Notes: a model not told the origin generated them from the sequence alone. Counted from the first letter of the stretch, positions 1 through 34,351 are shown. The stretch is 64,000 nt of DNA from an uncultured Planctomycetota bacterium (GCA_963849325.1 CAWKHF010000006.1:448001-512000), one strand, 5' to 3'. Made by a program: numbers and translations.

Positions 1-428
1 CGAACGGCAGTGCGGCTTCCTGCCGGTCGTGCTTGCCGGCCCGGTCGCGGGCCGGGAGACGGGAGCAGAGGTCGTGCAAGAGGACGCGGAAGACGGCGTT
101 TCTCCGTCGCCTGCGCCACGTTGTACTTCGGCCAGTCCTGCTTGTAGACCTTCTTTTCGGTGAGGGTGATGGTCTTCGTTTCGATGACGGTGCCGTCGGG
201 CAGAACGTCGCGCTGGTGGACGATGGAGGCGGCGTAGAAGTGCTTGCAGGTGAAGCCCGCCCTCGGTGTGGTCCGGGCAAGTGCAGGTCTTCGCTTCCAG
301 GTTGACGTGATAGGTAGCGCGTCGCCGCCTTGGTGGACTGGCTCGGCACAAGCCAGGTGCCGTCAGGCCAGGCGGTTGAGCCGACAGGTCGCCGCGATAA
401 TCAGGCCGCGCTGCTCTCTGGCATCCAT
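1..428 (-). mobile_element. SWIM zinc-finger-containing transposase, N-terminal part (frameshifted, runs off window start)
   Basis: Manual translation across indels: MDAREQRGLIIAA...WLVPSQS...KTCTCPDH..GFTCKH (SWIM CxC-xn-CxH)...VYKQDWPKYNVAQATEK. This resembles the N-terminus of SWIM-DDE transposases. The catalytic domain lies outside the window. Confidence 0.6.
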
Positions 429-563
429 AGCGATTGCCTTCCATTGAAGGGCGGAATCGCGTAGAATGAATCTTATGCGAGGTCGCATTCTGGCGCTGAT
501 CCGCCGGACTGTGATCTGCTCAGCAGCCGTTAGCGCGGCTGCTGAGCGTTTCGGTTTCTGCAA

Positions 564-637
564 GGTGCATGACGGGAATCGAACCCGCAACCCTCCGACC
601 ACCAATCGGTTGCTCTGCCTGTTGAGCTACATGCACC
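564..637 (-). tRNA. tRNA gene, atypical (anticodon loop TT-GGT-GG reads as Thr, but His-like G-1:C73); no encoded CCA
   Basis: Minus strand: G GTGCATG TA GCTC AACAGGCA GAGC A ACCGA TTGGTGG TCGGA GGGTT GCGGG TTCGATT CCCGT CATGCAC C. Full cloverleaf with 7-bp acceptor stem, D arm and TTCGA T loop. Confidence 0.75.
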
Positions 638-640
638 ATC

Positions 641-674
641 GGGTTAGACGGAAGGCAGCACTTCCGTCTAACCC
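641..674. other. Perfect 14-bp inverted repeat (hairpin) in tRNA leader
   Basis: GGGTTAGACGGAAG-gcagca-CTTCCGTCTAACCC. Confidence 0.8.
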
Positions 675-698
675 ATCCTCCTCCCTTACCTTGATATG

Positions 699-726
699 AT
701 TATATCGCTATCAGGGTAAAAATCAA
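699..726 (-). promoter_or_regulatory. Putative sigma70 promoter driving tRNA and transposase
   Basis: Minus strand TTGATT-N16-TATAAT in an AT-rich divergent intergenic region. Confidence 0.55.
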
Positions 727-767
727 GCCTATCAGCCTTCTTTCTCAAGAATTTTTCGAGCCAGTTC

Positions 768-796
768 TTGACATGGCCCGATTGCCTGGATAGGAT
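768..796 (+). promoter_or_regulatory. Putative sigma70 promoter
   Basis: TTGACA-N17-TAGGAT followed by GAAAGGGGGA RBS and ATG at 821. Confidence 0.6.
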
Positions 797-820
797 TTAT
801 CGAGAAAGGGGGATTTTGTC

Positions 821-1619
821 ATGGCGGCAAGCGAGGAAAAGAAACGCACGCGAAGCCCAGCCTACCCAAGCATTGATCTTAAGGAAGCGATCCATTACGC
901 GGAGACGGCGTACAGCGAGGAAGACCACCACGCATTCACTCCAGAGGCGGCGGCGGAACACTGGGGCTACAAGTCCACCAGTACGCGCCGTGAGCCAAAT
1001 AATTTCGGCACTGAAGCAGTTTGGCTTGCTCATTGAAGAACACGGTAACGAGGTTCGACGGGTTCGACTATCGCCGCTAGCTCTTGATCTCATAGTCCAT
1101 GAAGACGAAAGCGATCTACAGAGGAGAGATTTGCTTAAGACTGCGGCCCTGAATCCGAAAATCCATCGAGAAATTTGGGACAAATACGGTGGCAAGTTGC
1201 CCTCCGATACTTCCCTGAGAATCTATCTTCTGCGGGAACGGGAAGGATCGCCCTTCAACAAAGATCAAGTCGATAGGTTTATCAGCCAGTTACGGGAAAC
1301 AATCGAGTTTGCAAAGCTCGCTCCGGGTGATAAAATGTCCGAAGGGGGTGCTGCTACGGTCGATTCAGTCGAGGAAGACAGCAACGGCGACGGTGACGTG
1401 GATGAAGGCAAGCAGCGCTCTCCGCAGCGGAGACGAGCGATGCAGACAGGGCTTAAAGAAGACGTTTACACATTGGATCAGGGGCAGGTCGTCGCCATCC
1501 AGTGGCCCGAAAAGATCGACGCGGGCGAGATTGAGGACGTAGCGGACTGGATGCAGTTGGTCATCAAGAAGATGAAACGCTCCGCTCAACAGGAAGAGAC
1601 AAAGGAATTTGCTGAATAA
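821..1619 (+). CDS. Hypothetical protein (RSPAYPSIDL N-terminal motif, possibly winged-helix DNA-binding); one frameshift near 985
   Basis: ORF 821..1036 joins ORF 768..1619; promoter and RBS upstream. Confidence 0.6.
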
Positions 1620-6656: not shown

Positions 6657-6659
6657 GGC

Positions 6660-10432: not shown

Positions 10433-10458
10433 CGGGGTTGGACGTGGCGGCGCGCCGA

Positions 10459-11541: not shown

Positions 11542-11709
11542 GCTGTCTACTCCTTGCACACGGGCGAAGCGGGGAATCGGGTGGATACGATGCTCCTTAT
11601 GATGCCGCTTCCGTGGCACAAAGCAAGTTAGAAATGGATGAAGGGCCGGGAAAAGGTTACGAAGGGAGCCTTGTCGTGACAGCGGACCTTTTGTGGACGC
11701 GGCCTCGTC

Positions 11710-12087: not shown

Positions 12088-12240
12088 CGTTTCCCTTCCC
12101 CTCCCGGTATCGTGCTGCCGTCGTTGAACGTCAGGGGAATGAGGAGCGTGACCTTCTTGAGCATGTTCCCATATTACCATAGAGAGAGGCCGCCATGAAG
12201 AACTCGACCGTCCGGTTCTGCCGCTCTCTCGGAGATCGGC

Positions 12241-13722
12241 GTGGACGTGAGGTTTGAGACGAAACATCCGGGAGTGCATGTTGTGGGCGATGGCGACGGC
12301 GGCTTGCAGCGGCAGTTCGGCCTGTTGCAGGCGACGGCCCTGAACATGACCACGATCGTCGGCGCGGGCGTGTTCATCACCATCCCGCTGATGCTCGACA
12401 AAATGGCGGGACCATACGCTCTGCTCGGCTGGCTGGCCGCCGGCGTGCTGGTCCTCGTGGACAGCCTGGTCTGGAGCGAGTTGGGCGCGGCCCTGCCCGG
12501 CTCGGGCGGTTCGTACCTGTATCTGCTGGAGTGCTTCGGCCGTCCGCGTTGGGGCCGGCTGATGGCCTTCCTGTTCATCTGGCAATTCCTTCTCAGTGGG
12601 CCGCTCGAGTTGGCGTCCGGCCTCATCGCCATGGACTCGTTCTCGCAATCGCTCAGTCCGGCCTTCCAGGCGTACAACCGCGCTCACACTTTCCAATTCA
12701 TCCTCTCGGCGCGACAGGAGCTGGACCTGACCGTTAGCCCGGCTCGGCTGGGCTGCGTGGCCGTCGGCTTGCTCCTCATCGTCTTGCTGTATCGCCGCGT
12801 CGCCGTCCTTGGTCGCTTGACGGTGCTGCTCTGGCTCGGCGTCCTGGCCGTCATCGCCTGGATCGGTGTCGAGGGCATCCTGCACTTTGACGCGGCACGG
12901 GCGTTCGATTTCAGCCAGCCCGGGCCGGCGAACCCGGGGACCGCGCTGGGCGCGGTGATGATCCTGGCGCTGTACTCGTACCTGGGTTATTACAACATCT
13001 GCTATGTCGGCGAGGAGGTCCGCGATCCGGGACGGACGATCCCGCGCGCCATCCTGCTCAGCGCCGTCCTGGTGTGCGTGCTGTTCGCCGGTCTGCACCT
13101 GGCCATGCTGGGAACGGTGCCGTGGACCGAGGCGCTGGCCGGGCGCCAGACGTGGAAGGATGAGTACAGTCTGCCGGCGGACTTCATGGGACGCATTCAT
13201 GGGCCGTGGGCGGTGCGGCTGGTCACGGTGCTGCTGATGGGCAGTTGCTTCGGTTCCGCCTTCGCCGGACTGCTGGGCTATTCGCGCATCCCCTACGGGG
13301 CGGCGCGGGCCGGACATTTCTTCGAGGCGGTCGGGCGCGTCCATCCTCGGCATCGCATCCCGCACGTGTCGCTGCTGCTGGTCGGCGCACTGACGCTGTT
13401 CTGGAGTTTCTTCGATCTGCAAAACGTCATCAACGCCCTCATCACCACCCGCATCCTCGTGCAATTCCTGGGGCAGATCGTCGGCGTCTTTCTGCTGCGG
13501 CGATCGCAACCGAATCGGCCGCGACCGTTCCGCATCTGGTTCGCCCCGTTGCCGTGCGGCCTGGCGCTGGCCGGCTGGCTGTACGTCTTCGCGGCGTCGG
13601 GAACCTTGTATGTCGTGTTGAGTGTGCTGGTGCTGCTGGCCGGGACGGCCGCCTTCCTGTTCTGGTCGGGGCGCACCGGAGGCTGGCCGTTCGCCGACAG
13701 AGGGCCGAAGGTGGTACAATAG
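12241..13722 (+). CDS. APC family amino acid permease
   Basis: IVGAGVF, GGSYLYL, GEEVRDPGRTIPRAI, ~12 hydrophobic segments. Confidence 0.9.
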   Translation: MDVRFETKHPGVHVVGDGDGGLQRQFGLLQATALNMTTIVGAGVFITIPLMLDKMAGPYALLGWLAAGVLVLVDSLVWSELGAALPGSGGSYLYLLECFGRPRWGRLMAFLFIWQFLLSGPLELASGLIAMDSFSQSLSPAFQAYNRAHTFQFILSARQELDLTVSPARLGCVAVGLLLIVLLYRRVAVLGRLTVLLWLGVLAVIAWIGVEGILHFDAARAFDFSQPGPANPGTALGAVMILALYSYLGYYNICYVGEEVRDPGRTIPRAILLSAVLVCVLFAGLHLAMLGTVPWTEALAGRQTWKDEYSLPADFMGRIHGPWAVRLVTVLLMGSCFGSAFAGLLGYSRIPYGAARAGHFFEAVGRVHPRHRIPHVSLLLVGALTLFWSFFDLQNVINALITTRILVQFLGQIVGVFLLRRSQPNRPRPFRIWFAPLPCGLALAGWLYVFAASGTLYVVLSVLVLLAGTAAFLFWSGRTGGWPFADRGPKVVQ

Positions 13723-13765
13723 ACGATGATCCGGCGTCCAGAAGGATCGACGCGGAGGAGGACGC

Positions 13766-14818
13766 TTGACTGCCAGGCTAAACGTGGTGACGGGAGCGAC
13801 GGGCTTGCTCGGCAGCCACATCGTCGAGCACCTGCGGAGACGCGGCGAACGGGTCCGCGCTCTGGTGCGTCCGGCCAGCGACACGAGCTTCCTGCGTTCC
13901 CTCGGCGTCGAGCTGGCCGTTGGCGACCTGACCAGGCCGAACAGCCTTCGCCGCGCCGTCGAGGGCGCCGATGTCGTTTATCACTGCGCCGCCCGCGTCG
14001 GCGATTGGGGTCCGTGGCGCGTCTTCCAACGCGAGGTCATCGACGCCACCGCCAACCTGCTCGATGCTTGCCGCGCCGCCGGCGTCGGCCGAGTGCTGCA
14101 CGTCAGCTCGATCATCGTCTATGGCCATCCCCACATCCGGCAGGAGCTGTTCACCGAGGACGAACCGCTCGGTCAGGATCTGTGGGTATGGGACCACTAC
14201 TGCCGGGCCAAGGTGCGGGCCGAGGAATTGTGTCGTCAGTATCCCGGCGAGTTGACCATCGTCCGCCCCAGCTGGATTTACGGCCCGCGCGACCGCACGA
14301 CGCTGCCGCGCATCCTCAAGGCGCTGGACGCCGGCCGAATGGGGATCATCGGCCCGGGCGACAATCTGCTGAACATCGTGTACGCTGGCGACGTGGCCGA
14401 AGGCGCTATCCGGGCGGCCAACCATCCGCGGGCCGCCGGCCAGGCATACAACCTCAGCAGCGAGGGCGAGATCACGCAACGCGACTTCCTCAATTTGCTC
14501 GCCGACGTGCTGGGCCGGCCGCGCATTCGCCGCCATGTCTCCTACCGGCTGGCCTTCTGGGCCGGGCTTCTGTCGGAGGTGATCGGTCGAATCATTCGCA
14601 TCCGCCGGCCGCCGCACCTGACGCGCTACGCCGTGGCCCTAATCGGCCGTTCGACGCGCTTCAGCATCGCCAAGGCCCGCGAGCAGCTCGGCTGGCAGCC
14701 GCGGATCGACGTCCGCGAAGGCGTGCGCCGCACCATCGACTGGTACAAAAAACAAGGTTTCGAGCCAGCGGACCACCGAGCCGCGACCGTTAGAGAGCGG
14801 GGTTTCTCCACTTCCTGA
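13766..14818 (+). CDS. NAD-dependent epimerase/dehydratase (extended SDR)
   Basis: VTGATGLLGS, YCRAK (YxxxK), RPSWIYGPRD. Confidence 0.9.
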   Translation: MTARLNVVTGATGLLGSHIVEHLRRRGERVRALVRPASDTSFLRSLGVELAVGDLTRPNSLRRAVEGADVVYHCAARVGDWGPWRVFQREVIDATANLLDACRAAGVGRVLHVSSIIVYGHPHIRQELFTEDEPLGQDLWVWDHYCRAKVRAEELCRQYPGELTIVRPSWIYGPRDRTTLPRILKALDAGRMGIIGPGDNLLNIVYAGDVAEGAIRAANHPRAAGQAYNLSSEGEITQRDFLNLLADVLGRPRIRRHVSYRLAFWAGLLSEVIGRIIRIRRPPHLTRYAVALIGRSTRFSIAKAREQLGWQPRIDVREGVRRTIDWYKKQGFEPADHRAATVRERGFSTS

Positions 14819-14840
14819 CGGTCGCGGCCCCGACCGAGTC

Positions 14841-15799
14841 ATGAGCATGAGCCACTTCGCCGACCGTCTGGCCGCCGCCGTGCGGGCCAAGGGCAACGCC
14901 GTGTGCGTCGGCCTCGATCCGCGCTGGGAATCGCTGCCGGCGAGCCTGCGCGATCGCCACGGCGGTGCGACGCTGGCCACGGTGGCCGCCGCCTTCGAGG
15001 AGTTTTGCGGCCGGGTGCTCGACATCGTGGCTCCGCTGGTGCCGGTGGTCAAGCCGCAGAGCGCCTTCTTCGAGGCGTGCGGCCCGGAGGGCATGGCCGT
15101 GCTGCAACGTCTGTTGCGCAAGGCCCGCGACCTCGGTCTGCTGACCATCCTCGACGGCAAGCGCAACGACATCGCCTCGACGGCGGCCGCCTACGCCGAC
15201 GCCGCCTTCGCCGGCACGCGCCTGGCCGGCCGTACCTATCCCGTCTGGGAGGCCGACGCGCTGACGATCAACCCCTATCTCGGCCGCGATGCCGTCGAGC
15301 CGTTCCTGGAGAGCGCCCGCCGCGCCTCGCGCCGGGCGTGTTCGTGCTGGTGCGGACCAGCAATCCAGGCGCCGGGCAGTTCCAGGATCTGCTCGTTTCC
15401 AGCGGTACGGAGCCGGCCCGACCGTTGTATCAGCACGTCGGCGCCGCCGTGTCGGCCTGGGCGCGGGAGAACCTCGGCGCCTGTGGCCTGGGCGACGTCG
15501 GCGCCGTGGTCGGTGCGACGTACCCGGCCGAACTGGCGATGCTGCGGGCGATTTTGCCGGAGGTGATCTTCCTGGTGCCCGGCTTCGGCGCTCAGGGGGG
15601 CACGGCCGCCGGCGTCGCCACCGCCTTCCGCTCCGACGGACTGGGCGCCGTCGTCAACAGCTCGCGCGGCATCCTCTTTCCCTTCTCGCCCACCGAGCCG
15701 AACTGGGAGGTGCGTATCGACGAAGCGGCTCGCGCCGCTGTCGCCGCCCTGGCGTCAATTGGCAAAGATGTCGGTGGCGGCGGCGCGCGGCGCTCGTAA
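14841..15799 (+). CDS. pyrF: Orotidine-5'-phosphate decarboxylase (one frameshift near 15330)
   Basis: CVGLDP, KPQSAFFE, DGKRNDIAST, LVRTSNPGA, VVGAT, LVPGFGAQGG, VNSSRGI. Confidence 0.93.
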
Positions 15800-15870
15800 C
15801 ATGAGAGGAATACGGATTCATCCCCCAAGCCGCCGGCGTCGGCGGTGCCATCACCCCAACGAGAGTTGCC

Positions 15871-17139
15871 GTGGTCTATCCCAAAATCGTTCGCATTCGT
15901 CAGAACTTCGAGCGGCCTCGGGTGGCCGACATCCCCGCGGCCGTCGCTTCGACCCTGGAGAAACTGGACCTGGGCCAACGCATCCGGCCCGGCCAGACCG
16001 TCGCGCTGACGGCCGGCAGCCGCGGCATCGCCAACATCCCGCTCATCCTGCGCAGCACGGCCGCCTTCCTCAAGAAACTCGGCGCCAAACCGTTCCTCGT
16101 CCCGGCGATGGGCAGCCACGGCGGCGGCACCGCCGAGGGACAGCGGCAGCATCCTCGAAAGCTACGGCATCACCGAGGAGTTCGTCGGCGTGCCGCATCC
16201 GCGCCTCGATGGACATCGTCGCAGGTCGGCGTCACGCCCGAGGGCTTTCCCGTCTTGCTCGACCGCATCGCCTCCGAGGCCGACCACATCGGCGTCGTCG
16301 GCCGCGTCAAGCCGCACACCGGCTACCACGGCCCCATCGAGAGCGGCCTGATGAAGATGATGATGATCGGCCTGGGCAAGCACGCCGGCGCCCTCGCCTA
16401 CCACCGCATCCTCCTCGAACACCCTTACGACCAGGTCGTCCGCTCGGTCGGCCGGACGCTGCTGGCCGCCGCCCCCATCGCCTTCGGCCTGGCCCTGGTC
16501 GAGAACGCCTACGACGAGACGGCCTCGATCGAAGCGGTCGCGCCCGGAGACGTTCGAGGCGCGCGAGGAGCAGCTGCTGGCCGAGGCGCGACGTCTGCTG
16601 GCCCGGCTGCCGTTGCGCGAGGCCGACCTGCTCATCGTGGACGAGATCGGCAAGAACATCAGCGGCTCGGGCATGGACACCAACGTCGTCGGCCGCAAAC
16701 GCGCCTTCCGCGCGCCAGCCGCCGCCCGGACGGACTCGCCGATCCTGCGACTGATCTTCGTCCGCGGCCTGACGCGCGAAGACGCACGGCAACGCCACCG
16801 GCATCGGCCTGGCCGACTTCACCACGACGCGCCTCGTCCGGCAAATGAACTACCGGGCCACCGTCATCAACTGCCTGACGGCCGGCTATCCCGATGGGGC
16901 GTTCCTGCCGGTCCATTTCGAGACCGACCGCGAAGTGCTCGACGCCGCCCTGGCGATCATCGGCACGCGGCACGCCGGAACAGGCGCGGCTCATGCGCAT
17001 CCGCAACACGCTGCACCTGGACGAAGTGGAGGTCTCCGAGGCGTGTCTGACCGAGCCGGATCGGCAAACCGATTTCACGCCGATCGGCCGGCCTCGAACG
17101 CTGGAGTTCGACGCGGCCGGCAATCTGCCACCCTTGTGA
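15871..17139 (+). CDS. LarA-like lactate racemase-domain / DUF362-type protein (frameshifted)
   Basis: TAGSRGIANI, PAMGSHGGGTAEGQ, RVKPHT, ESGLMKM, GKNISGSGMDTNVVGR. Confidence 0.75.
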
Positions 17140-17146
17140 CCATCCT

Positions 17147-17205
17147 GTTTAGCCGCGACGCGCAGCGGAGCGCGGCATGCGCTCTGCTGCGCGTCGCGGC
17201 TAAAC
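17147..17205. repeat. REP-like palindrome family B, copy 1
   Basis: GTTTAGCCGCGACGCGCAGCGGAGC...GCTCTGCTGCGCGTCGCGGCTAAAC. Confidence 0.85.
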
Positions 17206-17229
17206 AGAGAGAGGTTCTCGGACGAAATC

Positions 17230-17532
17230 TCATCGTCGGGACAGCTGCTCGCGGCGGGCGTGTTCGAGGATCTCGCTCAGTTCCTGGCCGAGATAGGCGA
17301 TCAGGTGCCGCGTTTCCTCGTTGGTCTGAATGGTCTTCTGCACGGCATTCTGCAAGGCGAGCAGCGTCGGATAATGGCTGCGCTTGCGGATGGGCCGGCT
17401 GAGATCGCGCAGGTCGGCGGTGCGGGCCAGCCAGGTGACGGTGAAGTGCTCGATCAGATCGCGCACCCGTTTCTCGGCATCCGTCATCAGATCGCGCAGG
17501 GGCAGACGGCGAAAGGATCGATCGGAGATCAT
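17230..17532 (-). CDS. Small hypothetical protein
   Basis: 100-aa ORF with GGAGGAG RBS. Confidence 0.55.
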   Translation of the reverse strand: MISDRSFRRLPLRDLMTDAEKRVRDLIEHFTVTWLARTADLRDLSRPIRKRSHYPTLLALQNAVQKTIQTNEETRHLIAYLGQELSEILEHARREQLSRR

Positions 17533-17819
17533 GGCTCACTCCTCCCGCGTCGGCGGGGGAACAGCGAGGTACAGAGACGGCGCTCTCCTCCCGGAGACGC
17601 GCCTCGGCGTCCGGAGGTTCCGTGACGACCCACCGTCTCGCTTCCTCCGCGCGAGTCAACGGGAATAGCGTGGGGAGACGGCGAGCAATTTCGCAATGGT
17701 CCCGTCGAGGGTTGGGAAAATGGCAGCGGTTGTTCCCCTCAACGGATCTCTTTGTGTATACTCCATGAAGAGCCTCGGCGTCAAGCACGGCCTTCCCTTT
17801 TATCTCATAATTGTCCTCC

Positions 17820-18536
17820 ATGCGCATCCTGGTCATCGCGGACATTCACGGCAATTGGCCGGCCCTGCAAGCGGTGGCGGCCGAGCCGCACGACGTTTGC
17901 CTGTGCCTGGGCGACCTGGTCGATTACGGTCTGGAGCCAGCCCCGTGCATCGGCTGGGTGCGCGACAGGGTCCAGTACGCGGTGCGCGGCAACCACGACC
18001 ACGGCGTCGCCCAGAACGTCATCGTCCAGGGCCGCGCCGGCTTCAAGTACCTGACCGGCGTCACGCGGCCGCTGACACGCGAACGTCTGGGCGAGGGCGA
18101 CTTGCGCTTCCTGTCCCGTCTGCCGGTGACGCGCCTGGTGACCCTGGACAATACGCGCTTTTTGCTGGTCCATGCCACGCCGCGCGATCCGCTCGACGAG
18201 TACGCGCCGCCCGACGTCGAGTTCTGGACGCGGCGGCTGCAAAACGTCGAGGCCGACGTCGTCTGCGTCGGCCATACCCATCAGCCCTACGTGCTGGAAC
18301 TGGGCGACAAGCTGGTCATCAACCCCGGCAGCGTCGGCCAACCGCGCGACGGCGACCCGCGCGCCTCCTGCGCCATCATCGAAGATTATAAAGTCGATCT
18401 CAAAAGGATCGATTATCCTATCGAGGACACCGTCGCCGCCATCCAGGGCAGTTCGCTGCCGGAAAACGCCAAGGACATGCTGATCGACGTTTTCCGCACC
18501 GGCGCGCCGATGCCGAATGGACAAAAGAGTTCGTAG
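17820..18536 (+). CDS. Calcineurin-like metallophosphoesterase (YfcE-like)
   Basis: ADIHGN, GDLVDYG, GNHD, VHA, GHTH, NPGSVGQPRDGD. Confidence 0.92.
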   Translation: MRILVIADIHGNWPALQAVAAEPHDVCLCLGDLVDYGLEPAPCIGWVRDRVQYAVRGNHDHGVAQNVIVQGRAGFKYLTGVTRPLTRERLGEGDLRFLSRLPVTRLVTLDNTRFLLVHATPRDPLDEYAPPDVEFWTRRLQNVEADVVCVGHTHQPYVLELGDKLVINPGSVGQPRDGDPRASCAIIEDYKVDLKRIDYPIEDTVAAIQGSSLPENAKDMLIDVFRTGAPMPNGQKSS

Positions 18537-18550
18537 ACAAAACTTCTCGG

Positions 18551-18600
18551 AGCCCGCAGCGTCAGTGAGGGAACGTACACCCTTGCTCCCGCTGCGGCCC
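18551..18600. repeat. Degenerate REP-like palindrome upstream of the RNAP-like operon
   Basis: AGCCCGCAGCGTCAGTGAGGG...CCCTTGCTCCCGCTGCGGCCC imperfect inverted repeat. Confidence 0.45.
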
Positions 18601-18640
18601 CTGTCCAAAATGCGCCTACCTGGCTTGGAGCGACGATCGC

Positions 18641-20391
18641 ATGGCTGGCCGATGCTTTTACGTCTCGTGGGTGGACCTTCGCACCGATCCGTGGCCGCAG
18701 TGGGAGAAGGTCCGACCCGGCACCGGGGAGATGATGCTGGAAGGGCAACGCATCCGCTGCCTGCCGGTCGACCATCCCCACTGGCCGGCCGTCCCGCTGC
18801 TGGAGCAGGCGGGGCCGCCGATGGTGGCCGACCCGCGCCTCGGCCGCTACGTCTGGCCGGGCATCCCGCTTGTGCTCGACGGCCGACCATGCCGCCTCTA
18901 CACCGGCCCGACGCTCAGCGCCCTGTTCCATCCGGGCAGTCGATTCTGCAATCTCGAAGGACTCGATGTCGTCTACCTCTTGTATCAGCCCGAACGCGCG
19001 GACGGATCGCACGAGCTGTTGCGCAACGTCCTCGCCCGACTCTGCCAGGCCCGCGACATCCAGAACGCGGACAAGCGAATCCAGTTCGTGGACGTCAAGG
19101 GCATCGCCGACCCAACCGACCACGCCGCCATCATTCGAGCGATCGAACAATGGCTGGGGCGGGACGACCCGTTCGATCTCGGCCGCCGCGGCTCGGCGAA
19201 AAACCCGCCGCGCATCGTCATCAACCTGAGTCCGGGCACGCCGTCCATGCACGCCGCCTGGCTGATGCTGCGCTGGAATGGAGCGCTGGGCGGGCGGAGA
19301 GTATCGTCGAATTCGTCCAGGGCGACGGCGGACTGGTCGAGCGCTGCCGTCGAGGGACCGCCGCCCAACCCGCTGCGCATCGTGCCGATCGACGTGCTGG
19401 CTCAGTGGTCGGCCGCAACGGGGGCTGGCGCCGCAGCCGGCCCTCGGCCCGGAAGAACCGAGCGTGCCGCTGGAAGAGCTGAACGGCCCGCCCTTCGACG
19501 ACCTGCGCCAGAAGATCGACCACGCCGCCATGCTCGGCCTGCCGATCCTCTTGCAGGGCGAGCGCGGCACCGGCAAGACGTTCCTGGCCCACTACTACCA
19601 TCAGCGCCGACAATTCTACGCGCCTTCCAGGCGGAGCGAGGCCGCGCCGGCCAAGACCGGCGGCGCAAGGCGACGGCAAGGAGGCGATGCGAAAGGCCGC
19701 CGAACGCTTCCCGGAGAAGACCGGGCCGAGCAGCTTCGTCGGCGTCACGCTGTCGGAGTTCGCCGACCTCGATACGCTGCGCGACACGCTGTTCGGCTGG
19801 GCCAAGGGAACGCCTGGACCGGCGCCTACAAGGCGTACGACGGCCTGCTCGGCGAGGCGCACGGCGGCACGCTGTTCCTCGACGAGATCCACCACCTGAC
19901 CCGGCCGTTGCAGGCGGCGCTGCTCGGCCCGCTCAACGCCGCCGCTATCGCCCCAAGATGGCCGACCTACGAGGTCATCAGCCACTTCGACCTGGTCGTC
20001 GCCACCAACGATCCGCAAGTGGCGCGACAAGATGGCCGACGACTTCCGCGACCGCATCGAGCGGATCGTCCTGGAGGTGCCGTCGTTCCGCTCCTTTCAG
20101 CGACACGGGGCGGACATCATCTGGCGGTTCTGGGAGTTCACGCTCCGCCGCCGCTGCCGCGAGTGCGGCATCGAGTACAGCGGCGAGGGACGGGCTTGGC
20201 CGGAGTGCTGCGAGCAGCTGAAGGGCTGTTCCGACGTCACCCGCTGGCGCGGCAACTGGCGCGATCTGCAACGCCTGGCCGACAACTTGCTGCTGCATCT
20301 GACCTCGTCCCGCGACGGCCGGCCGTCGCCGATCCGCTGGGACCGCGACAAGCTGGAGCACGCCATCGCCGAGACGTTCGCGGAGACGTGA
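18641..20391 (+). CDS. Sigma54-interacting AAA+ activator (bEBP) with N-terminal CARF/RtcR-like domain and no evident C-terminal HTH (frameshifted)
   Basis: N-term VSWVDLRTDP...GPTLSAL...IADPTDHAAI...INLSPGTPSMHAAWLML (RtcR-type CARF-like). Walker A QGERGTGKT, TLFGWAKG/AWTGA (GAFTGA loop), Walker B TLFLDEI, LQAALL, VVATND, WRGNWRDL (sensor II). Confidence 0.85.
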
Positions 20392-20438: not shown

Positions 20439-21458
20439 ATGGCCAGACGTGCCGGTGTGCGCAAGGGCATTCAGAAACAGGGACAGACGCAGGTGCAAAT
20501 TCAGACCACCATGCGGCGCCGGGCCGGCGTGGAGGAACTGAGTACCTGGCAGGAGACGGCAGTTCGCCCCGGCGTTTCCCCGCGCGGCGGCGACCTGGGT
20601 TACGATGAGGAGGCGGACGGCGATCAGCTGCTCGACGACGGCGAGGAATCCGGGTCCAGCGAACCGACGGGCGATGATTGCTTCCAACCCGAGGAGTCGG
20701 ACGATGAGCCGCAAATCCGTCATCGGCTGACAGTGGCCGATCTTCTCGGTTCACGACCTCCGGTAGTGCTTCTCCGTCTGAGCCTGGAAAACGGTGCGGT
20801 CGCCGTTCGGACCTGTGCGCGACCGGCTTCGCGCGATGCCGGCCAGGCTCTGGAGCTGCTGCGTGACTTCGTGACTCGATGCTTCCAGGATGGCCGCGCT
20901 CACTTCACGGACGCCGAGTGGGACCAGCTGCTCGGCAATGCGCGTCGCCGTTGGTCCGCCGTTTAACGCTGTTGCTACGACTGGCGGTCAAGGGCCGAGA
21001 GAAGGTCCGTCTCGACGAGGAGAGCGAGGCGGCATTCACGCCGCACGACATCGGCCTGGAGCGCTTCGCCAACAAGTTCGCCGCCCTGCCGGACGGCACG
21101 CCGTTCAGCATTCGTCTGCTCTTGTTGGACCAGCGCGGCCGCGAGCGCGGCGAGCACTTCTTCGATCAACTGCCCGAACGCCGTCAAGCTCCTGGCTCTG
21201 CGGCGGGCCTTGCAGCGCGAGCGGCAAAAGGGCGTGGCGGTCAGCGACCACGAATTCCGCGACGAGATCCAGCACGCCCTCGAAGAACTGCTCGGCATGG
21301 AAGTGCCCAAGCCCACCGAAGACCAGGTGCGGCGACGCCTGCGCGACAACTTCAAGCGCAAAGGTCTGGGCGACCTCTTCCCCAACCAGGCCGCCCGCCA
21401 GCGCGAGCACGACCGGATGGCGGCGACTGCCCCCGTCCGTACCGAGGAATCCGCATGA
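20439..21458 (+). CDS. Divergent sigma54 (RpoN)-like factor, ~339 aa (two compensating frameshifts near 20940 and 21180)
   Basis: Gln-rich N-terminus (QKQGQTQVQIQTT) and acidic linker. HDIGLERFANKFAALPDGTPFSIRLLL resembles HESTISR..KY..P.G.F.LK.FF. RERQKGVAVSDHEF resembles E...PLSD..L, and FPNQAARQR resembles IP.S..R. GGAGG RBS; ATGA overlap with the next gene. Confidence 0.6.
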
Positions 21459-24400
21459 GCGCCAGCCTGCTCGCGCATGTCGGTCTAGATCTTGTCACTC
21501 CTCGTGTCGCAGCCCTGCGGCTAGGGGAGTTGACCGTCGAGCCGGTGCAAACCGTTCTCGGCCGCGCCGACCTGGCGGGTAGCTCGCGCCCACTGCCATC
21601 TAGTGCCGTGCTCTTGAGGCTCGGCGATCAGTCGTTGTGGCTGCCCGCACCAGCCGCACCAGCCGCGCCGTCCGAGCCGGACGAAGGCCGAGCACCGATC
21701 TATCTGCACGGCGGACAAGAACTCGTCCTGCCCTTCGTCCGTCTCTTCGTTCTCCAAGCCGACCAGGAACCGGACAAGGCACGGGTCGAATACCTGGGTC
21801 TGTCCGATTGGTTGGACGACGCCGTTGCCGTGTGGCGCTTCGAGCCGGCACGGCGGGATGGCTCCCCCCGTCCGCTGCTGGACCATCTCGAACAAAACGC
21901 GACTTCGCCGGCCGAAGCCTTGCAAGCGATCAGCCGGGTACTTTGTTTCGCCTTGTTTGGCGCGGCAAGCCCGGCCGTGGTCGGTGGCCTGCGTCTGCCC
22001 GCCTGTCCGATGTGGCTCCGCCCCGTAGGAGAAACGCCATTCGCGCGCCGTATCGCCCGCGCGCTGGTGGTCACTGCTCGCCTCTCGGCCGATCCCGCCA
22101 AACCGACCGTGCCCTCCACGAACTTGCGGACATCGGCCTACCGCATTCGCCCCGCCGAGCCGCGCGATTGGGGTCTCGATCCCGTCCACACGCCGGAAGG
22201 CGCCGACATCCGCCTGACCGGCCGACTCGGCGTCGGTGTCGCTGTGCGCGGCCGGGCGCTGCACGCTCCGGAGACGGAACGGCCGCCGTTGTCGGCGTCC
22301 ACGGCCCGGCTGCCGTTCGCCGGCTACAACGACCCTCGCCGTCTGCTGATGGCCGCCAACATGCAGGCACACGCCGTGCCCCTGCCGCGACAGGAACCGC
22401 CTTGCGTCCGCATGACTCCCGAAGCGGATGACCCGCCCGGCGTCAACCTCCGCGTCGGCTACCTCGCCTGGCAGGGTTGGAATCACGAGGACGCCTGGGT
22501 GCTGTCCGAATCCGCAGCCCGGCGTCTCGGCACGCTCCAGGTTCTGGTGCAGACCATCGCCATCCGTGCCGTCGAGGTGGCTCCCGATCTGCTGGTGCAG
22601 TGCGGCCAGCCGGTCGAACGTGGCCAGCTGCTCGTCCGTCGTTTTGTGGCCCCGGCCTTGCTCTGCCCGTCGCTGGAACTGCTGGCGACGCTGGAAGACC
22701 TGGACGACAAGGTACCGCTTCGGCCGGAGGTCGATGACTCGGCTGCGGAGAGCGGCACCATCATCCGGCTTGAAGAATGGGACCTGCGCGACCGGCGCGG
22801 CCTTCCGATAGACTGGCAAGTGCCGGAAGCGGTGGCCGGGGCATTCCGGACTGTTTATCGCATCCACATCGAACGCGCGCTGCCGCTGAGCGTTGGCGAC
22901 AAGCTGGCCAACCGGCACGGCCACAAGGGCGTCGTCGGCGCCATCCTGCCCGATGACGACATGCCGCGCTGGCGCGGTCGGCCGCTGGAAGCCCTGATCG
23001 ACCCGATCAGCGTCCTCAACCGCTCTAACTGGGGACAGGTCTACGAGGCACTGGCCGGGGCGCTGGTGGAGCCGGGTCAGGTGCGCGACGTCAACGGTGT
23101 CTCCGGCGAAGAGGTGCGGGCGGAGGCACAACGGGCAGGGGCCGACGCACAGGGCCGTTGGCTCATCGAGCCTCCGATGGCGGCACGCTGGTTGACGAAG
23201 GAAGTGCGCGCCGTCGCCGGTGTCCAGTACGTCATGCGGATGCCGCATCACGCCGCCGACAAGATCTCCGGCAATCCTCCACCGCCGCCATCGTTGGGTT
23301 ATCGGGTGCGCCGCCGATCGCAGCGGCTAGGCGAGATGGAGCACTGGGCGCTGTGGGCGCACGGCATCGGTGCGCACGGCCTCCTCCGCGACCGAGGACG
23401 GCGGACAGAGGGCGCTGTCTCCCGCCGTGGCCCGTCTTCGCCGCTTGCTCGGGTCGGCCGGGTTCGGCATGGACGTCGAGGGCGGATCGCTGCTCGTTCG
23501 GAAGCTGGCGCTCGACGCGGAGCCACCCGCTGATAACAAGATATTATCTCTCCTTAAAGAGAATGAAACAAGCACCGCGGAGAGCGGCGTGGAGGGAAGC
23601 AAGGAAACGAAGTCCCCGCGATCCCTGGCCGAACTCTACGACGCCCTGGATGCGGTCGCGCCCGAAACGCCGACCGTACTCGTCTTCGATCCGCCGCTCC
23701 TCCGCCCATCCAAGGGGGATGACGTCGAGGTGGCGCTGCGCTGGATGCCCGTGTTGCCCGCCTGCGATCGCCCGCCGCGGCGTTGGTTCGACGGCTCGGA
23801 GGAGCCGCACGAATTGACCGCCGACCTGCGCCGCCTGGTCCGCCTGATTCGCAAACGTCGGCAAGCGCGGACGGAAGACGAGGACGCCGCCAACGCGGAA
23901 CTGTTCTACGCCGCTCGCCAGTTCCTATCCGATGCCTACATCGCGGCGGTAGGGCGCGGGGCGACCGGCCCATTCAGCAGTAAACTGGCTTACTTGCGTC
24001 GCGGTGTGCTGGGGCAGCGCTTGCCCCGCTCGGCACGGGCGACCGTCTCTCCCGGCGGTACGCGGCGTTTGGGACTGGACGAAATCGGTCTGCCGCCGGC
24101 GCTGGCCCACACTCTTTTCGGGCCAGGACTGCCGAGCGAGGAAAACCAGTTGGCCGAGGTCGTCGCCGGCCGCTGGGTGTGGCTCAAGCGCGATCCGGTA
24201 TTGCACCGCTGGGGTCTGCTGCCGGTGCGCGTCCGTGTCGTACCCGGCGTCACTATCCGCCTGCCGGCGTCGCTGCTGGGACCGCTGGGGGCCGATTTCG
24301 ACGGCAACACGGTCGCCCTCTTCGCCGCGTTGCCCGGTGCCCTCGCCGACCTCCACGCCTGTTCGCCGCCGGCGCTCGCCTGGCACCCGTTGCTCGACGA

Positions 24401-25307
24401 AGCCCTGTTCCAACCGAGCAAGCAGTATCAATACGGTCTTTTCCTTTTGTCACAAAGCAGAGAGCAAAAGGAACGATTGCAACTGGCGTTGCAAGCCGAG
24501 GGCGCCCTGACTTGGCCGGATGAGTCCGACCCCAAAAGGGCATTTTCAACCTGGGTCCGTCAGGCCATCCAGCAGGGACCGAAAGGACATTGGTGGGCCA
24601 TCCTCGAAGTATACGCCCTGCACGCCCTGGCCGACGATCCCGCGATGGGCTTCGGCCTAGGTGACGTGGACGAACTGGCGCGGTTGCCGGTGGTCCGTTG
24701 CGGAGCGGCCAAGGATCTGTATGGCGGTGTCGAGCCGCCGGCGTCCCCCGCGGCGCGGACGGACTGGGAGCGAAACCGGAAGGCGATGGCGGACATCTTG
24801 CACGGACAAAGCCTGACGATCTATCGGCGCCGCGGCGATTTGGGCGATCCTATCGCCGACGTCATGGTCGCCGCCAAGGCGTCCATCGGCCAGTTCGGCG
24901 GCGCCCTGCGCCGGCTGGTGTACTCCGCGGACCATCTTCGACCCGAGGACATCCAAATGGCCCAATGTCTGACCGAGCAGGTCACGCAAAAGGCGCTGAG
25001 CGTCAAAGCGGGCAAGCCTCCGCTGTTGTACGCCGACTTCGAGCGGCAGCTGCGGCAACTGCTCAAACGGCAAGAGTTGAATGAATCCGAGCGGGAGAAA
25101 CTGCAAACGCTGCTGGCTGAGATCGGCAAGAAACTGGAGCCGGTCTGGACGGCTTTGGGTTCGTTGATGCCGAGCGAACCCAAAGCCTGGTTGGAATGGC
25201 TGCGGAAGCCGCACGAATTGGACGAACTCGTCGCGGCGAAGGGCGAGATTCGTCTGCCGCTGGACGATTTACGCTTACGCGCGTTCCTGTCGGAGCCTGA
25301 AGCGTAA
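21455..25307 (+). CDS. Minimised two-barrel RNA polymerase, beta-like plus beta'-like, probably one fused ~1,280-aa polypeptide (frameshift near 23370-23400)
   Basis: Beta motifs: DPVHTPEG, NDPRRLLMAANMQAHAVPL, GVNLRVGYLAWQGWNHEDAWVLSES, VGDKLANRHGHKGVV, DPISVLNRSNWGQVYE, YVMRMPHHAADK, SQRLGEMEHWAL. Beta' motifs: MPVLPACDRP, LRRGVLGQR...SARATV, LKRDPVLHRWG, GADFDGNTV, PSKQYQYGLF, QFGGALRRLV (bridge helix), AQCLTEQVTQ (trigger loop). Confidence 0.9.
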
Positions 25308-25355: not shown

Positions 25356-26186
25356 CTAGGCGAGTCCGTCGGGGGCGTTGCTGAAAGTGCCGTGGCCGAA
25401 GCGGATTTTCGGCGGCGTCACCTTGGTGCGGTGATCGGGGGCGGCGTTGCGGCCGGCAGCGTCCTGGCCGTGGAAGTAGTCCTTCTGCCAGCCATCGCCC
25501 CGGACTTCGCCCTGGGCTTTCTGCTGGTGAAACATGTTACGCGATTTCTGCCACTCCAGGTAAGAGTTGTACACCTCGGGGTTGTCGGCCAGGCGGTTGT
25601 AATTGATGGTGGCCCCTTCGAGGTCGGCGCAGACGTTGCTGATCAGGGGGACCGCCTGGAAGAGCGGCTCGCCGACGTTGTAACGAACCGGCTCATTGGG
25701 CCGCATGATCTTGTAATTCATCGTGAACGACATGCTGATCCAGTCGCTCTCGACCAGCGCGGTGAGCGGGTGCAAATTGTGCTTGAAGTAGTTGACCGGC
25801 CCGAGGATCAGCAAGCGCGAGCCGGGAGGATTGGTGCGGAAGAGGAACGGTGTGTTCCAGGTGATGATGCCCTCGCCGAACTGGTTGTTGATCCAGCCCA
25901 TCCAGAACTCGGGGGCCGCGTCGAACCAGAACTCGATGGTGCCCGGCTCCATCCGGCCGCGCCAGATGGCGGTGAAGCCGACCGGGTTGTTGATCCAGAA
26001 GCCCGTCTGGTTCATGATGGTCAGGGGCAGGCAGCGGTAGGCGTGGTGGCTGGGCGTGGCGTCCATCCATTCGCGCCGCCTCTCGGCCCAGCCCCAGTCC
26101 CAACCCGTGCCGTCGCGGCGGTGCTTCTTCAGCGTCTCATCGCCGGCAATTTGATAAATGTTGATCTCAAAAGGCGGTTGTGACAT
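25356..26186 (-). CDS. DUF6065-like hypothetical protein
   Basis: RREWMDAT...AYRCLPLTIMNQTG...FGEGIITW...VESDW...FTMNYK...WQKDYFHG. Confidence 0.75.
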   Translation of the reverse strand: MSQPPFEINIYQIAGDETLKKHRRDGTGWDWGWAERRREWMDATPSHHAYRCLPLTIMNQTGFWINNPVGFTAIWRGRMEPGTIEFWFDAAPEFWMGWINNQFGEGIITWNTPFLFRTNPPGSRLLILGPVNYFKHNLHPLTALVESDWISMSFTMNYKIMRPNEPVRYNVGEPLFQAVPLISNVCADLEGATINYNRLADNPEVYNSYLEWQKSRNMFHQQKAQGEVRGDGWQKDYFHGQDAAGRNAAPDHRTKVTPPKIRFGHGTFSNAPDGLA

Positions 26187-26370
26187 GGCTGCTCCAGGAT
26201 CGGGACCGGCCCGATGCCATCGAGAGGGAATCGTACTCGATAGCAAGTGCGCGGCCGGCTGAGACGGATCTCCCCTCAATCCCTAGCAAACGTCCAAGGC
26301 TTCGTCAAGCGAACGCCGCCGCTTTTGCGGGGCCGGTCCCGAGCCGCTTGCGGCTTCGCGGCAACGGGTC

Positions 26371-32175: not shown

Positions 32176-33369
32176 ATGCGTCCCCTGCACATTTGCTTTG
32201 TGTCGCAAGAGTATCCACCGGAGACGGGCTGGGGCGGCATCGGCGCCTACACCTATGAGATGGCCCACGGCTTGGCGCAGGCGGGCCAGCGCGTGACCGT
32301 CATTGCCCTGGCGCGAAACGGCGAGAGCGTGACTCGCGGCGGCGGGGTCGAAGTCCATCGCGTTCCGCACGGACCCCAATGGGATCGCCGCCGTGTCCTG
32401 TGGCGGCTCAACCGCTTCTGGCCGGGGTTCGCCTGGGCCGCCGCTCGCCGCCTCCGCGAAATCCATGCCGGCGACGCCGTGGACGTCGTCGAGGCGGCCG
32501 AATGTCGGGCGGACAGTCTCTTTCTTCCCCTGCTTCGCCGCGGCCCGCGCGTGATCGTCCGTCTGCATACAGCCTGGATTTTCGTGGACCGAATGAACGG
32601 TATTGTCCCGGATCGGCGGAAACGTCTCATCTACCTTCAAGAAGCGCTGTCCATCCGCGCCGCCGACCGCGTGACCGCTCCCAGCCGCGCCGTCATCGAT
32701 CTCACCAAAACGTGGACCCACATCGGACGAACCGAGATCGGCGTCGTGCCCAACCCGGTCAACAGCGCGACGTACAGCCCTCCGCCGGCGCCTCCTCGAA
32801 CCGAGGAAATTCTCGTCGTCGGCCGATTGGAGGTGAACAAGGGCAGTGCCGTCCTCGAACAGGCGATGCCGTTGATCCTGCGGCGCCGACCGTCCGCATC
32901 GTTCCGAATCGTTGGCAAGGACGGTACGGCCCCCTGCGGCCGATCGTGGCGACAGCGCATCCTGGACGCGCTGACGCCGGCCGAGCGGCCGCGCGTCCTT
33001 TTCGAGCAGACGAGCCGGGTGGAACTGATCGAGCGCTATCGGCAAGCCCCGCTCTGCCTTCTGCCGTCGCTGTGGGAGAATTTTCCTTACGCCGTGCTGG
33101 AGGCGATGGCCTGCGGCGTCCCAGTGGTGGCCTCCCGAACCGGCGGCGTACCCGAGCTGGTTGACGATGGCGTGACGGGGGTGCTTGTGCCCCCCTGCGA
33201 TCCCGCCGCCTTGACGGAAGCCGTGTGTTCGCTGCTGGAGGACGCCGCTCTCCGCCAGCGGATGAGCCGCGCCGCCCGCGAACGGGTGCAGGAGCGTTTC
33301 CGCGTCGAGTCGGTCGTACCGCGCATGCTCGCGGTGTACCGGGCCGTCCGCGAGGGGAGGCGATCGTGA
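32176..33369 (+). CDS. Glycosyltransferase family 4
   Basis: SQEYPPETGWGGIG, PSLWENFPYAVLEAMACG. Confidence 0.92.
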   Translation: MRPLHICFVSQEYPPETGWGGIGAYTYEMAHGLAQAGQRVTVIALARNGESVTRGGGVEVHRVPHGPQWDRRRVLWRLNRFWPGFAWAAARRLREIHAGDAVDVVEAAECRADSLFLPLLRRGPRVIVRLHTAWIFVDRMNGIVPDRRKRLIYLQEALSIRAADRVTAPSRAVIDLTKTWTHIGRTEIGVVPNPVNSATYSPPPAPPRTEEILVVGRLEVNKGSAVLEQAMPLILRRRPSASFRIVGKDGTAPCGRSWRQRILDALTPAERPRVLFEQTSRVELIERYRQAPLCLLPSLWENFPYAVLEAMACGVPVVASRTGGVPELVDDGVTGVLVPPCDPAALTEAVCSLLEDAALRQRMSRAARERVQERFRVESVVPRMLAVYRAVREGRRS

Positions 33370-34312
33370 GCGCCGCGCCGCGAATCTCGGCGATCCTTTG
33401 CACGCATAACCGGGCCGACTACCTGGAGCGCGCCTTGAAGAGCCTGGCGGAGCAATCGCTGCCGCCGGAGCAGTTCGAGGTCGTCGTGGTGGACAACGCC
33501 TCCTCGGATCGAACACTGGATGTGACGAAACAGTGGATGATACGGATGTCTAATCTACGCTATGAGCGTGAAGAACGCCTTGGTCTGTCGCAGGCGCAAC
33601 ACCGGCGCCGCGGCGAGCCGGGCGCCCTACCTGGCTTACCTCGATGACGATGCTCGTGCGGATCGAGACTGGCTGAAGCAGCTGCTTCACACCTTCGAGG
33701 AGTGTACCTCGCCCCCGCCGGCTTGCATTGGCGGGCGCGTCTGGCTGGACTGGGGAACGGCCGCGCCAGGCTGGTTGCCGGCCCGCTATTACTCCCTGTA
33801 TACCTTCGTGGATCACGGCGCGGAGGATCGTCCGTTGGGAGAAGGCGAGTACCTGGTCGGAGCGAACCTCGCCTTCCGCCGCGACGCCCTGCTCCAACTC
33901 GGCGGCTTTGATACCAACCTCGGACGGAAAGGCTCGACGCTCCTCTCCGGCGAGGAATCTGCCCTCGTCGGCCGATTGCGGGAGCATGGCCTGGCGGTCT
34001 ACTATGCCGGGCAGCGCCATGGTGTGGCACGCGGTCCCGCGGACGCGGCGGCGACGACGATGGTTGTGGGCGCGGATGTTCTGGGACGGCGCCTCGCAGC
34101 CGCTCCTCGACTCCGGCACGGGGCATCCGGCGGGACACTATCTGCGACAGGGCTATCGAGATTTGCGGCGGATGGCGCGTTTCACGCTGGAGGGTGGCCT
34201 CGCTCTCGCCGGTGGAGATCGGCCGCAATGCCTGGACAATGTCTTGCGGCTGATCCAGCGGGCCGGCCGGCTCCGCACGCACCTGCTGCTCGCCGCGGGG
34301 AGGATCCGGTGA
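33366..34312 (+). CDS. Glycosyltransferase family 2 (frameshifted)
   Basis: ILCTHNRA, VVVDNASSD, AYLDDDA, GANLAFRR, SGEE. Confidence 0.88.
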
Positions 34313-34351
34313 TCGCTCCCTTGAGAACGAGCGGACCAAAGGTGTTTGCCC

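Follow-up and report, generated by a model that had tools for sequence, protein, structure and literature searches.

The question raised by this locus is whether two overlapping reading frames, which together carry motifs of both large subunits of RNA polymerase (RNAP), represent a single gene, and what such an enzyme would do in a bacterium that keeps the canonical rpoB and rpoC besides it. The locus is located in a window of 64,000 nt (i.e., the whole stretch of DNA analyzed, to which all positions refer) from an uncultured Planctomycetota bacterium (GCA_963849325.1 CAWKHF010000006.1:448001-512000). Two open reading frames (ORFs) of its (+) strand, 20879..23533 and 23370..25307, overlap in frames one base apart. 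The analysis makes it probable, without making it certain, that they form a single minimal two-barrel RNAP of 1,283 codons with an artifactual break, and that the operon to which it belongs (CARF-AAA+ ATPase, an orphan protein named here MID, and RNAP) is a signal-gated private transcription module.

The RNAP gene starts at the ATG of 21455, which overlaps the TGA stop of MID as ATGA (21455-21458). Its first 640 codons (21455..23375, +) encode the beta-like half, as recognized by Pfam, alignments and structure. A surplus base at 23376 (+) shifts the frame, and the last 643 codons plus a TAA stop (23377..25307, +) encode the beta C-terminal helix followed by the beta'-like half. An earlier reading of the sequence alone (hereafter the sequence-only reading) had placed the break at ~23370-23400, inside beta, and had expected ~1,280 codons after one insertion/deletion (indel) fix. 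Both expectations are borne out, as without base 23376 the frame comprises 640 codons before the break, one codon across it and 642 after it, 1,283 in total.

The break at 23376 is very probably an indel error of the assembly and not a natural one. In alignment A1, all 11 full-length homologues (1,187-1,307 aa) are uninterrupted across it, and the frame-1 product of the window aligns with them until ...WALWAHGIGA and the frame-2 product from ...ATEDGGQRALSPAVARL on. The RNAP copy of a relative (genome G020, locus L006), considered for the junction only, is likewise continuous at this position and broken elsewhere. The reads point in the same direction. A 151-nt unitig of the public short-read run X1 (share of words 0.07; 5 of 30 bins covered) matches positions 23343-23494 with 99% identity at a depth of 2.1, showing one mismatch and one gap, and the gap is base 23376 itself.

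Other genes of the same assembly are also found in pieces. In detail, rpoB extends over three frames (Rpb2_1, Rpb2_2+3 and Rpb2_6+7, respectively), rpoC over at least two frames and fusA over at least three pieces. Within the window, leuS occupies three overlapping frames at 8194-10261 (-), that is, 8194-9744, 8670-9623 and 9005-10261, each matching leucyl-tRNA synthetase domains, and a glycosyltransferase family 2 (GT2) gene at 33165-34356 (+) is in two frames (33165-33644 and 33541-34356). Around the split GT2 gene, and in one block with it, are genes for an ABC-2 transporter, a methyltransferase and GT4. The operon itself needs at least four frame switches in the AAA+ gene, two in MID and one in RNAP, all in 6.7 kb. 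The RNAP copy of the window retains 65 of the 66 family-invariant and 111 of the 113 near-invariant columns and, therefore, it does not appear to be decaying. The unbroken homologues, the indel-rich assembly, the unitig without the extra base and the conservation of this copy are jointly the reasons for considering the break an artifact.

Two family members which are apparently split, P0004 (647 aa) and P0017 (639 aa), begin at a Met inside GEMDxWALWAH. A natural split was considered for them and set aside, their starts being read as a restart of the gene call after a contig edge or a frameshift.

The beta' half was searched with phmmer against 1.84 billion cluster representatives, resulting in 574 matches at E<=1e-3, of which 73 reach E<=1e-30. 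Whether homologues are single ORFs was a check suggested in the sequence-only reading, and 35 of these 73 strongest ones are indeed single ORFs of 1,187-1,625 aa, in which the match covers the C-terminal half. The remaining ones are shorter and for the most part fragments from metagenomes. Source names, obtained for five of the ten members looked up, read "hypothetical protein" in every case. Full-text literature searches found no description of the family or of the operon, and a mention in supplements or in tables of the CARF census is possible.

Pfam recognizes RNA_pol_Rpb2_6 in 21455-23533 (E 1.3e-22, 80.8 bits vs. a cut-off of 23.4), followed by the first residues of Rpb2_7 under the cut-off (E 0.0014), and RNA_pol_Rpb1_2 in 23370-25307 (E 2.2e-11, 44.7 bits vs. 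a cut-off of 25.3). Rpb2_6 is present in all 31 members scanned, Rpb1_2 in 30 and Rpb2_7 in 4. No other RNAP domain was found in these 31 members, and neither was the full RpoB/RpoC set (Rpb2_1, 2, 3, 6 and 7; Rpb1_1-5). The canonical equivalogs are far from being reached, since member P0020 scores 94.1 bits against 801 for TIGR02013 (RpoB) and 22.2 against 963.5 for TIGR02386 (RpoC). In the PDB, the family profile matches bacterial beta (E 3.4e-43) and beta' (E 6.2e-19).

The beta and beta' motifs quoted in the sequence-only reading are all present. The beta-like half (all features +) carries DPVHTPEG (22178-22201), NDPRRLLMAANMQ (22328-22366), NHEDAWV (22481-22501), GDKLANRHGHKG (22895-22930) and, just before the break, GEMEHWALWAH (23330-23362), with NHEDAWV and GDKLANRHGHKG being invariant in the family. 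After the break, the beta C-terminal helix LSPAVARLRRLLGSAGF (23415-23465) is followed, in the beta'-like half, by YLRRGVLGQRL (23991-24023), KRDPVLHRWG (24186-24215), the catalytic loop GADFDGNTVA (24288-24317), a bridge-helix-like segment GQFGGALRRLVY (24888-24923) and a trigger-loop-like segment LTEQVTQKALSVKAG (24969-25013). The motifs of this family correspond to the signature motifs of RpoB/RpoC (ETPEG-like, NxED, GDKxxxRHGxKG, RxxLLGxR and the DFDGD loop). GGALRRL and LTEQVTQ..SVKAG are presumed, by likeness, to be the bridge-helix and trigger-loop motifs. A beta-type double-psi barrel, defined by the Lys/Arg loop GDKxxxRHGxKG and NxED, is found here through Rpb2_6, GDKLANRHGHKG and NHEDAWV. 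The beta' half contains only four scattered Cys and no zinc-binding Cys clusters. Judged from the sequence, it therefore lacks the N-terminal zinc finger of beta', in agreement with the loss that had been proposed.

Both double-psi barrels had been described as retained. The Pfam matches for the beta barrel (Rpb2_6) and for the beta' barrel (Rpb1_2) both exceed their cut-offs, yet the metal loop of the window copy reads DFDGN, with Asn in place of the third Asp (codon AAC, 24306-24308). In the 31 aligned members (alignment A2), D939, D941, G942 and D943 are invariant without exception, and this change is the sole mismatch of the window among the 66 invariant columns. The codon is without read coverage in run X1, and the assembly is error-prone.

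The predicted fold agrees with the domain matches. The AlphaFold model of member P0021 (1,187 aa; identity to the window 52% in the beta-like ORF by alignment A1 and 45% in the beta' half by alignment A6) has a pLDDT of 87.3 and a pTM of 0.89, and the model of the window's own beta' half (642 aa) has a pLDDT of 88.6. In the superposition which the sequence-only reading had suggested as a check, the models (pLDDT 87-89) follow both large subunits of RNAP from end to end. With VIA-align, residues 1 to ~594 of P0021 are placed on Rpb2/beta with Z 26-27.5 over 440-495 residues. In the case of the window's beta' half, 475-543 of the 642 residues align with Z 17-19 along the full beta'/Rpb1, the partners including beta', Rpb1, Pol III RPC1 and the large subunit of vaccinia. 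For instance, the alignment spans 3..1471 of 6asg_D and 9..1356 of 4mey_D, and so extends to residue ~1471 (of 1524) of the Thermus beta' chain and to residue 1356 of the E. coli chain. In the beta' model, residues 491-514 and 522-540 form long helices. Judging from the likeness of the motifs and from the reach of the structural alignment, segments resembling the bridge helix and the trigger loop are present. Each modeled half retains only the conserved core of its subunit, which extends well past the barrel, and roughly half of the subunit's mass has been lost.

According to the sequence-only reading, the enzyme is more like cellular RNAP than the single-chain enzymes of the YonO or crAss type are. 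The comparisons do place it nearer to the cellular type than to the phage types. The best Foldseek matches of the P0021 model in the PDB are bacterial beta chains (E 2.5e-22), and viral models in BFVD match more weakly (best E 2.8e-17, giant-virus subunits). YonO, the single-chain two-barrel RNAP of the Bacillus prophage SPbeta, is not among the best 50 BFVD matches listed, which are giant-virus and phage RNAP subunits.

The unrooted phylogenetic tree of the beta barrel (41 rows; quick IQ-TREE on an alignment fitted to the family profile) showed that the mini-RNAP family forms a clade of its own (SH-aLRT 100), with the genome's own rpoB located among the canonical rpoB (99). By this placement, the gene is not a recent pseudogene of rpoBC, a possibility named in the sequence-only reading. 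A sister family of longer fused beta-beta' proteins forms another separate clade (100), and phage beta-like proteins are apart too. An independent minimization of RNAP, as suggested in the sequence-only reading, is plausible, the tree being unrooted and its deep forks unsettled. In the same tree, a single ORF of 2,759 aa covering the beta and beta' regions (6099-14375 in both L016, a contig of a Rhodobacterales metagenome-assembled genome (MAG), and L046, a metagenome contig) has a long branch and neighbors the phage beta-like proteins, away from canonical rpoB.

The distribution of the family is sporadic over MAGs of Planctomycetota, Pseudomonadota and Spirochaetota, and the named records with members are MAGs of Alcaligenaceae, Planctomycetales and Spirochaetes. 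The gene is found in 1 of 40 relative genomes (G020) and in none of 400 further genomes of the phylum at E<=1e-60. Scanning of metagenomes added 15 family loci (L019-L033). In IMG/VR, 18 loci were found, all 25-30% identical and beta-only, and none is a family member. In the G020 copy (L006, G020:C288, 9580-13895, -), the polymerase is in three pieces (619, 326 and 175 aa), with a frameshift and a TAA, and only a CARF fragment of 155 aa lies upstream. This assembly is short-read-like, and the copy is possibly in true decay.

Compared with RpoB/RpoC, the family shares both double-psi barrels, the signature motifs and a structural alignment along the full length of both subunits. It differs in being one chain of ~1,283 aa instead of two (~1,340 + 1,400 aa in E. 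coli), in having no zinc-binding Cys clusters, and in its position outside the rpoBC operon and in a separate clade. Fused RpoB-RpoC proteins (PRK09603 / PRK14844) have the same order of beta then beta' in one polypeptide; their profiles are of ~2,840-2,890 aa, and the scores of the window family are 59 bits (cut-off 5,372) and 54 bits (cut-off 4,632). Full-size fused RpoB-RpoC is the only RNAP of its cell, whereas the host of the window keeps both canonical genes, and its fused enzyme is an accessory one, half as large.

Strong shortening of a beta-then-beta' fusion is also known from the yeast virus-like element enzyme K2ORF6p, described as a 982-aa Rpb2::Rpb1 fusion that has lost about half of its coding sequence (PMC2919709, PMC6211774) and with the C-terminal beta' regions on a separate small subunit, K2ORF7p (PMC6211774). 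By these descriptions, K2ORF6p is eukaryotic and plasmid-borne, whereas the window family is bacterial and has the beta' C-terminal core in the same chain. YonO is described as a single chain of ~100 kDa, a late-gene enzyme of a prophage, homologous to multisubunit RNAP and active without other core subunits, with only a few catalytic residues in common with multisubunit RNAP and no detectable trigger loop (PMC5467207). The window family keeps much more of the cellular enzyme, since it passes the Pfam thresholds for both barrels and its beta' half is structurally alignable over ~80%. In addition, Pfam found no prophage genes around it in window 8194-36257.

The RNAP gene is the last of three co-directional and tightly packed genes, in the order CARF-AAA+ ATPase, MID, RNAP. 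An AAA+ gene is located upstream on the same strand in 8 of the 11 distinct assessable loci (the window, L006, L012, L013, L019/20/21, L022, L027 and L033). The sequence-only reading is thus borne out in its essentials, and these operon partners, the Asp-to-Asn change and the sigma54-bearing sister family described below are new beyond it.

Gene 1 (18641..20391, +) encodes an RtcR/PspF-like CARF-AAA+ ATPase according to Pfam (Sigma54_activat, E 1e-16), PADLOC and tblastn. Its assembled sequence occupies three frames (tblastn high-scoring segment pairs in frames 2, 3 and 1), and at least four switches are needed to read it. It contains the CARF motif LSPGTPSMHAAW (19226-19261), the Walker A GERGTGKT (19557-19580), a degenerate L1 loop AWTGA (19812-19826), the Walker B LFLDEIHH (19872-19895) and GNWRDL (20251-20268), all on the (+) strand. 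The degeneration of the GAFTGA-type L1 loop extends across loci (GSWNLA, KSYTGA, GYFTGQ, GSFTDA), and no DNA-binding domain, including a helix-turn-helix (HTH_8), was found by Pfam in the AAA+ copies of the mini-RNAP family; the L036 copy of the sister family has one. The PADLOC model PDLC01994 (RtcR_PspF1--CARF_AAA_HTH) matches the intact homologues of L012 (1e-63) and L013 (4.7e-49) and the CARF piece of the window (1.1e-12). Going by the model name RtcR_PspF1, the ATPase was probably known to the 2020 CARF census, whose neighborhood tables might include the polymerase as well. In NCBIfam, the intact homologues match RtcR best (E 1.7e-32 and 7.8e-29), at scores (113 and 100.9 bits) far below the cut-off of 650 for NF038308. 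The gene rtcR is the divergent regulator of the rtcBA RNA-repair operon. Gene 1 shares with RtcR the N-terminal CARF domain and the AAA+ domain of the sigma54-interaction type, and differs from it in the score far under the cut-off, the degenerate L1 loop, the absence of an HTH by Pfam and the co-directional, abutting neighbors.

Gene 2, MID (20439..21458, +), encodes an orphan protein of ~340 aa, whose homologues are also located between AAA+ and RNAP. Its N-terminus is basic and then acidic, and its gene is in two frames with two switches. Two motifs are conserved, KFAALPDGTPF (21074-21106, +; family form KFAxLPDGxxF) and the C-terminal GLGDLFPN (21363-21386, +; family form GLGDxFPN). MID is a separate gene in six loci (the window, L012, L019/20/21, L022, L027 and L033), whereas in L013 and L026 it forms the N-terminal part of a fusion with the RNAP. 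Pfam searched to E 10 gave chance-level matches only, and no match was obtained with NCBIfam or PADLOC. The ESM Atlas search reached at most a feature score of 0.80 and a TM score of 0.25, with a poor Atlas model (pTM 0.32).

MID is predicted to bind the RNAP. In three complex predictions with the beta-like half, ipSAE was 0.63, 0.66 and 0.66, versus 0.00 for the best control. For comparison, 58 of 80 solved complexes attain this ipSAE mark, as do 2 of 110 mismatched pairs; the calibration is a rough one, because the predictions for MID were made from custom alignments. The runs have at least 55% of contacts in common, and the pLDDT of the partner is at least 61. The LPDG motif of MID (residues 203-208) touches RNAP residues 387-481 (L020 numbering), an insert between NHED and GDKLANRHGHKG, which, judging by topology, would be placed where the flap/wall of beta sits.

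A similar arrangement with a larger polymerase is found in the sister family (L034 3040-13048, L036 1598-13789 and L039 1091-13696). Its fused beta-beta' proteins of 2,037-2,101 aa keep Rpb2_3, Rpb1_1 and Rpb1_5 at the Pfam level, an RtcR-like AAA+ gene is flanking, and a Sigma54_DBD protein with a zinc ribbon is encoded downstream. The AAA+ of L036 has the Pfam RtcR domain and HTH_8. L039 is directly beside type III CRISPR genes, namely Cas10 palm2 and two RAMP genes, and L034 additionally encodes a SprT-like and a radical-SAM protein. Both families consist of shortened fused beta-beta' proteins beside an AAA+ of the RtcR or bacterial enhancer-binding protein type. They differ in that the window family has ~1,250 aa, MID upstream and no sigma54-like gene, whereas the sister family is longer and has Sigma54_DBD downstream. 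In the window, no Sigma54_DBD ORF was found within 8194-36257, and the sole one of genome G000 is on contig C5.

The neighbors of the operon in other loci are often defense-like, that is, CARF-HEPN in L013, Cas1 in L012, and a PLD nuclease with a superfamily 1 (SF1) helicase in L020. In L013, a 520-aa protein at 11405-12964 (+) with a PADLOC CARF_HEPN match (E 2.4e-7) lies directly downstream of the MID-fused polymerase. In L020, a PLD-like nuclease, an unassigned 442-aa ORF and a 1,514-aa SF1 helicase (AAA_11/AAA_12) are encoded downstream on the opposite strand (12475-19851, -), and this trio looks like a defense island. In L022, an integrase and an HTH_17 gene are located just downstream of the operon. 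The flanks in the window are of housekeeping and polysaccharide type (leuS, permease, pyrF, phosphoesterase and polysaccharide genes). A convergent gene for a DUF6065 protein (25356-26279, -; E 1.4e-63) lies at the end of the polymerase gene and was not seen beside the polymerase in the other Pfam-scanned loci.

The data show the gene structure, the family, the fold and the conservation of the operon, and the binding of MID to the RNAP is predicted. With regard to the ligand, the target of the AAA+, the template and the biological role, we infer the following scheme. The CARF domain would sense a small nucleotide or an RNA-end signal. MID would be a polymerase subunit sitting on the flap/wall-like insert of the beta barrel and acting as an initiation or specificity factor. 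The AAA+ ring would use ATP to activate the MID-RNAP complex, in the way that enhancer-binding proteins open the sigma54 holoenzyme, and the outcome would be private, signal-gated transcription, probably in a stress or defense response. An action of the AAA+ on the private polymerase is suggested because its L1 loop is degenerate, an HTH was not found, and the sister family has its own Sigma54_DBD. In a more specific form, which is put forward tentatively and is short of an expectation, the CARF-AAA+ would open the private RNAP directly, MID would be a new fold family unrelated to sigma factors, and the response would be an inducible stress or antiviral one.

Several observations weigh against a signal-gated module built on an active polymerase. 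Either a close relative or the window's own sample may be the origin of the unitig which lacks base 23376 (depth 2.1). Provided that the base call is correct, the window copy, reading DFDGN, may be impaired; in YonO, a mutant with all three Asp changed to Asn was inactive (PMC5467207). MID has no detectable likeness to sigma54-like proteins (hhalign probability 0.1) and no match to any family, and its docking score is a model-derived prediction from the beta-like half of the RNAP. No source of the ligand was found, as the type III CRISPR domains Cas10 palm2 and RAMP were unmatched in the host genome (G000), which is 84.7% complete and indel-rich, so that absence is not implied. Finally, an AAA+ gene was not found at L011, L023 and L025/26, and L011 and L023 are also without MID. 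These three loci without AAA+, two of them without MID, indicate that the polymerase does not always need its partners nearby; some family members (L011, L023) work without them or find them elsewhere. The polymerases of L011 (1462-5322) and L023 (7914-11552) are a subclade of the family which stands alone. The former follows a divergent HlyD-like gene, and the latter an ORF whose translation, judged by eye, is tRNA-synthetase-like.

On the same side of the balance are the presence of rpoN in the host and a perfect TGGCAC-N5-TTGC element (10/10) in L012 (4957-4971), ~245 nt before the AAA+ start. Both would fit a rather unlikely but serious alternative, according to which the CARF-AAA+ is an ordinary activator of the RtcR type, sensing damaged RNA or a cyclic nucleotide and acting on the host's sigma54-RNAP at the operon promoter, with MID and the mini-RNAP being only the induced effectors. 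The RtcR match in NCBIfam and the PADLOC assignment to RtcR_PspF1 agree with it, and so does a report in which RtcR homologues heading defense superoperons are read as ordinary activators (PMC11090510). However, the RtcR scores (113 and 101 bits) remain far under the cut-off, the loop that contacts sigma54 is degenerate, no HTH was found by Pfam in the mini-family copies, and the sister family brings a sigma54-like factor of its own. A conserved sigma54 promoter before the operon was searched for and rejected. In the -24/-12 scan, 17 of 18 upstream regions had no site or one of at most 8/10, a value also reached by 16 of 177 background windows, and L012 is the single perfect case. Throughout the window, TGGCAC-N5-TTGC with at most two mismatches was found 67 times, against 65 expected by chance. 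In L012, from a Planctomycetales MAG, the Cas1 gene (927-2258) lies on the other strand, ~3 kb further upstream of the -24/-12 element.

It is very improbable that this copy is a pseudogene or a dead enzyme, with the frameshift at 23376 and the Asp-to-Asn change being genuine mutations in an operon that was acquired horizontally and is now in decay. The DFDGN loop, the seven frame switches across the operon and the condition of the sole relative that has it (G020, 1 of 40), with the RNAP broken at two other places and the AAA+ truncated in a short-read-like assembly, could be understood in this way. The essential genes of the window's assembly, however, are broken at similar density, all invariant columns except one are kept, and the unitig is intact in frame at 23376. 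Least of all can the gene be considered a transcription enzyme of a prophage or mobile element without benefit to the host, as YonO is for SPbeta; the sporadic distribution across several phyla (1 of 40 relatives, none of the 400 further genomes) and the integrase and HTH_17 gene of L022 would suit this highly improbable origin, but no phage or transfer genes were found by Pfam in window 8194-36257 and none of the distant, beta-only IMG/VR loci belongs to the family.

The interpretation as a minimal polymerase within a signal-gated module bears on a small group of enzymes. Single-chain relatives of the cellular RNAP are few (YonO, the virion enzyme of crAss-like phages and the yeast plasmid enzyme), and they have served to probe what an RNAP truly requires of its ~400-kDa core. 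A core of ~1,280 residues comprising both large subunits, predicted with high confidence and present on bacterial chromosomes of several phyla, would be a much closer natural minimal core, of use in structural and mechanistic work and in orthogonal expression systems. If the direct opening of the private RNAP by the CARF-AAA+ is true, it would represent a third initiation route for a polymerase of cellular type, beside the sigma70 and sigma54 types, and the enzyme would be a naturally orthogonal RNAP of ~140 kDa which keeps the bridge helix and the trigger loop. The partnership with the CARF-AAA+ and the orphan subunit, together with the sister family, which has a sigma54-like factor of its own and is in part found next to type III CRISPR genes, suggests that bacteria have inducible private transcription systems, and offers a testable link from nucleotide or RNA-damage signaling to a dedicated polymerase.

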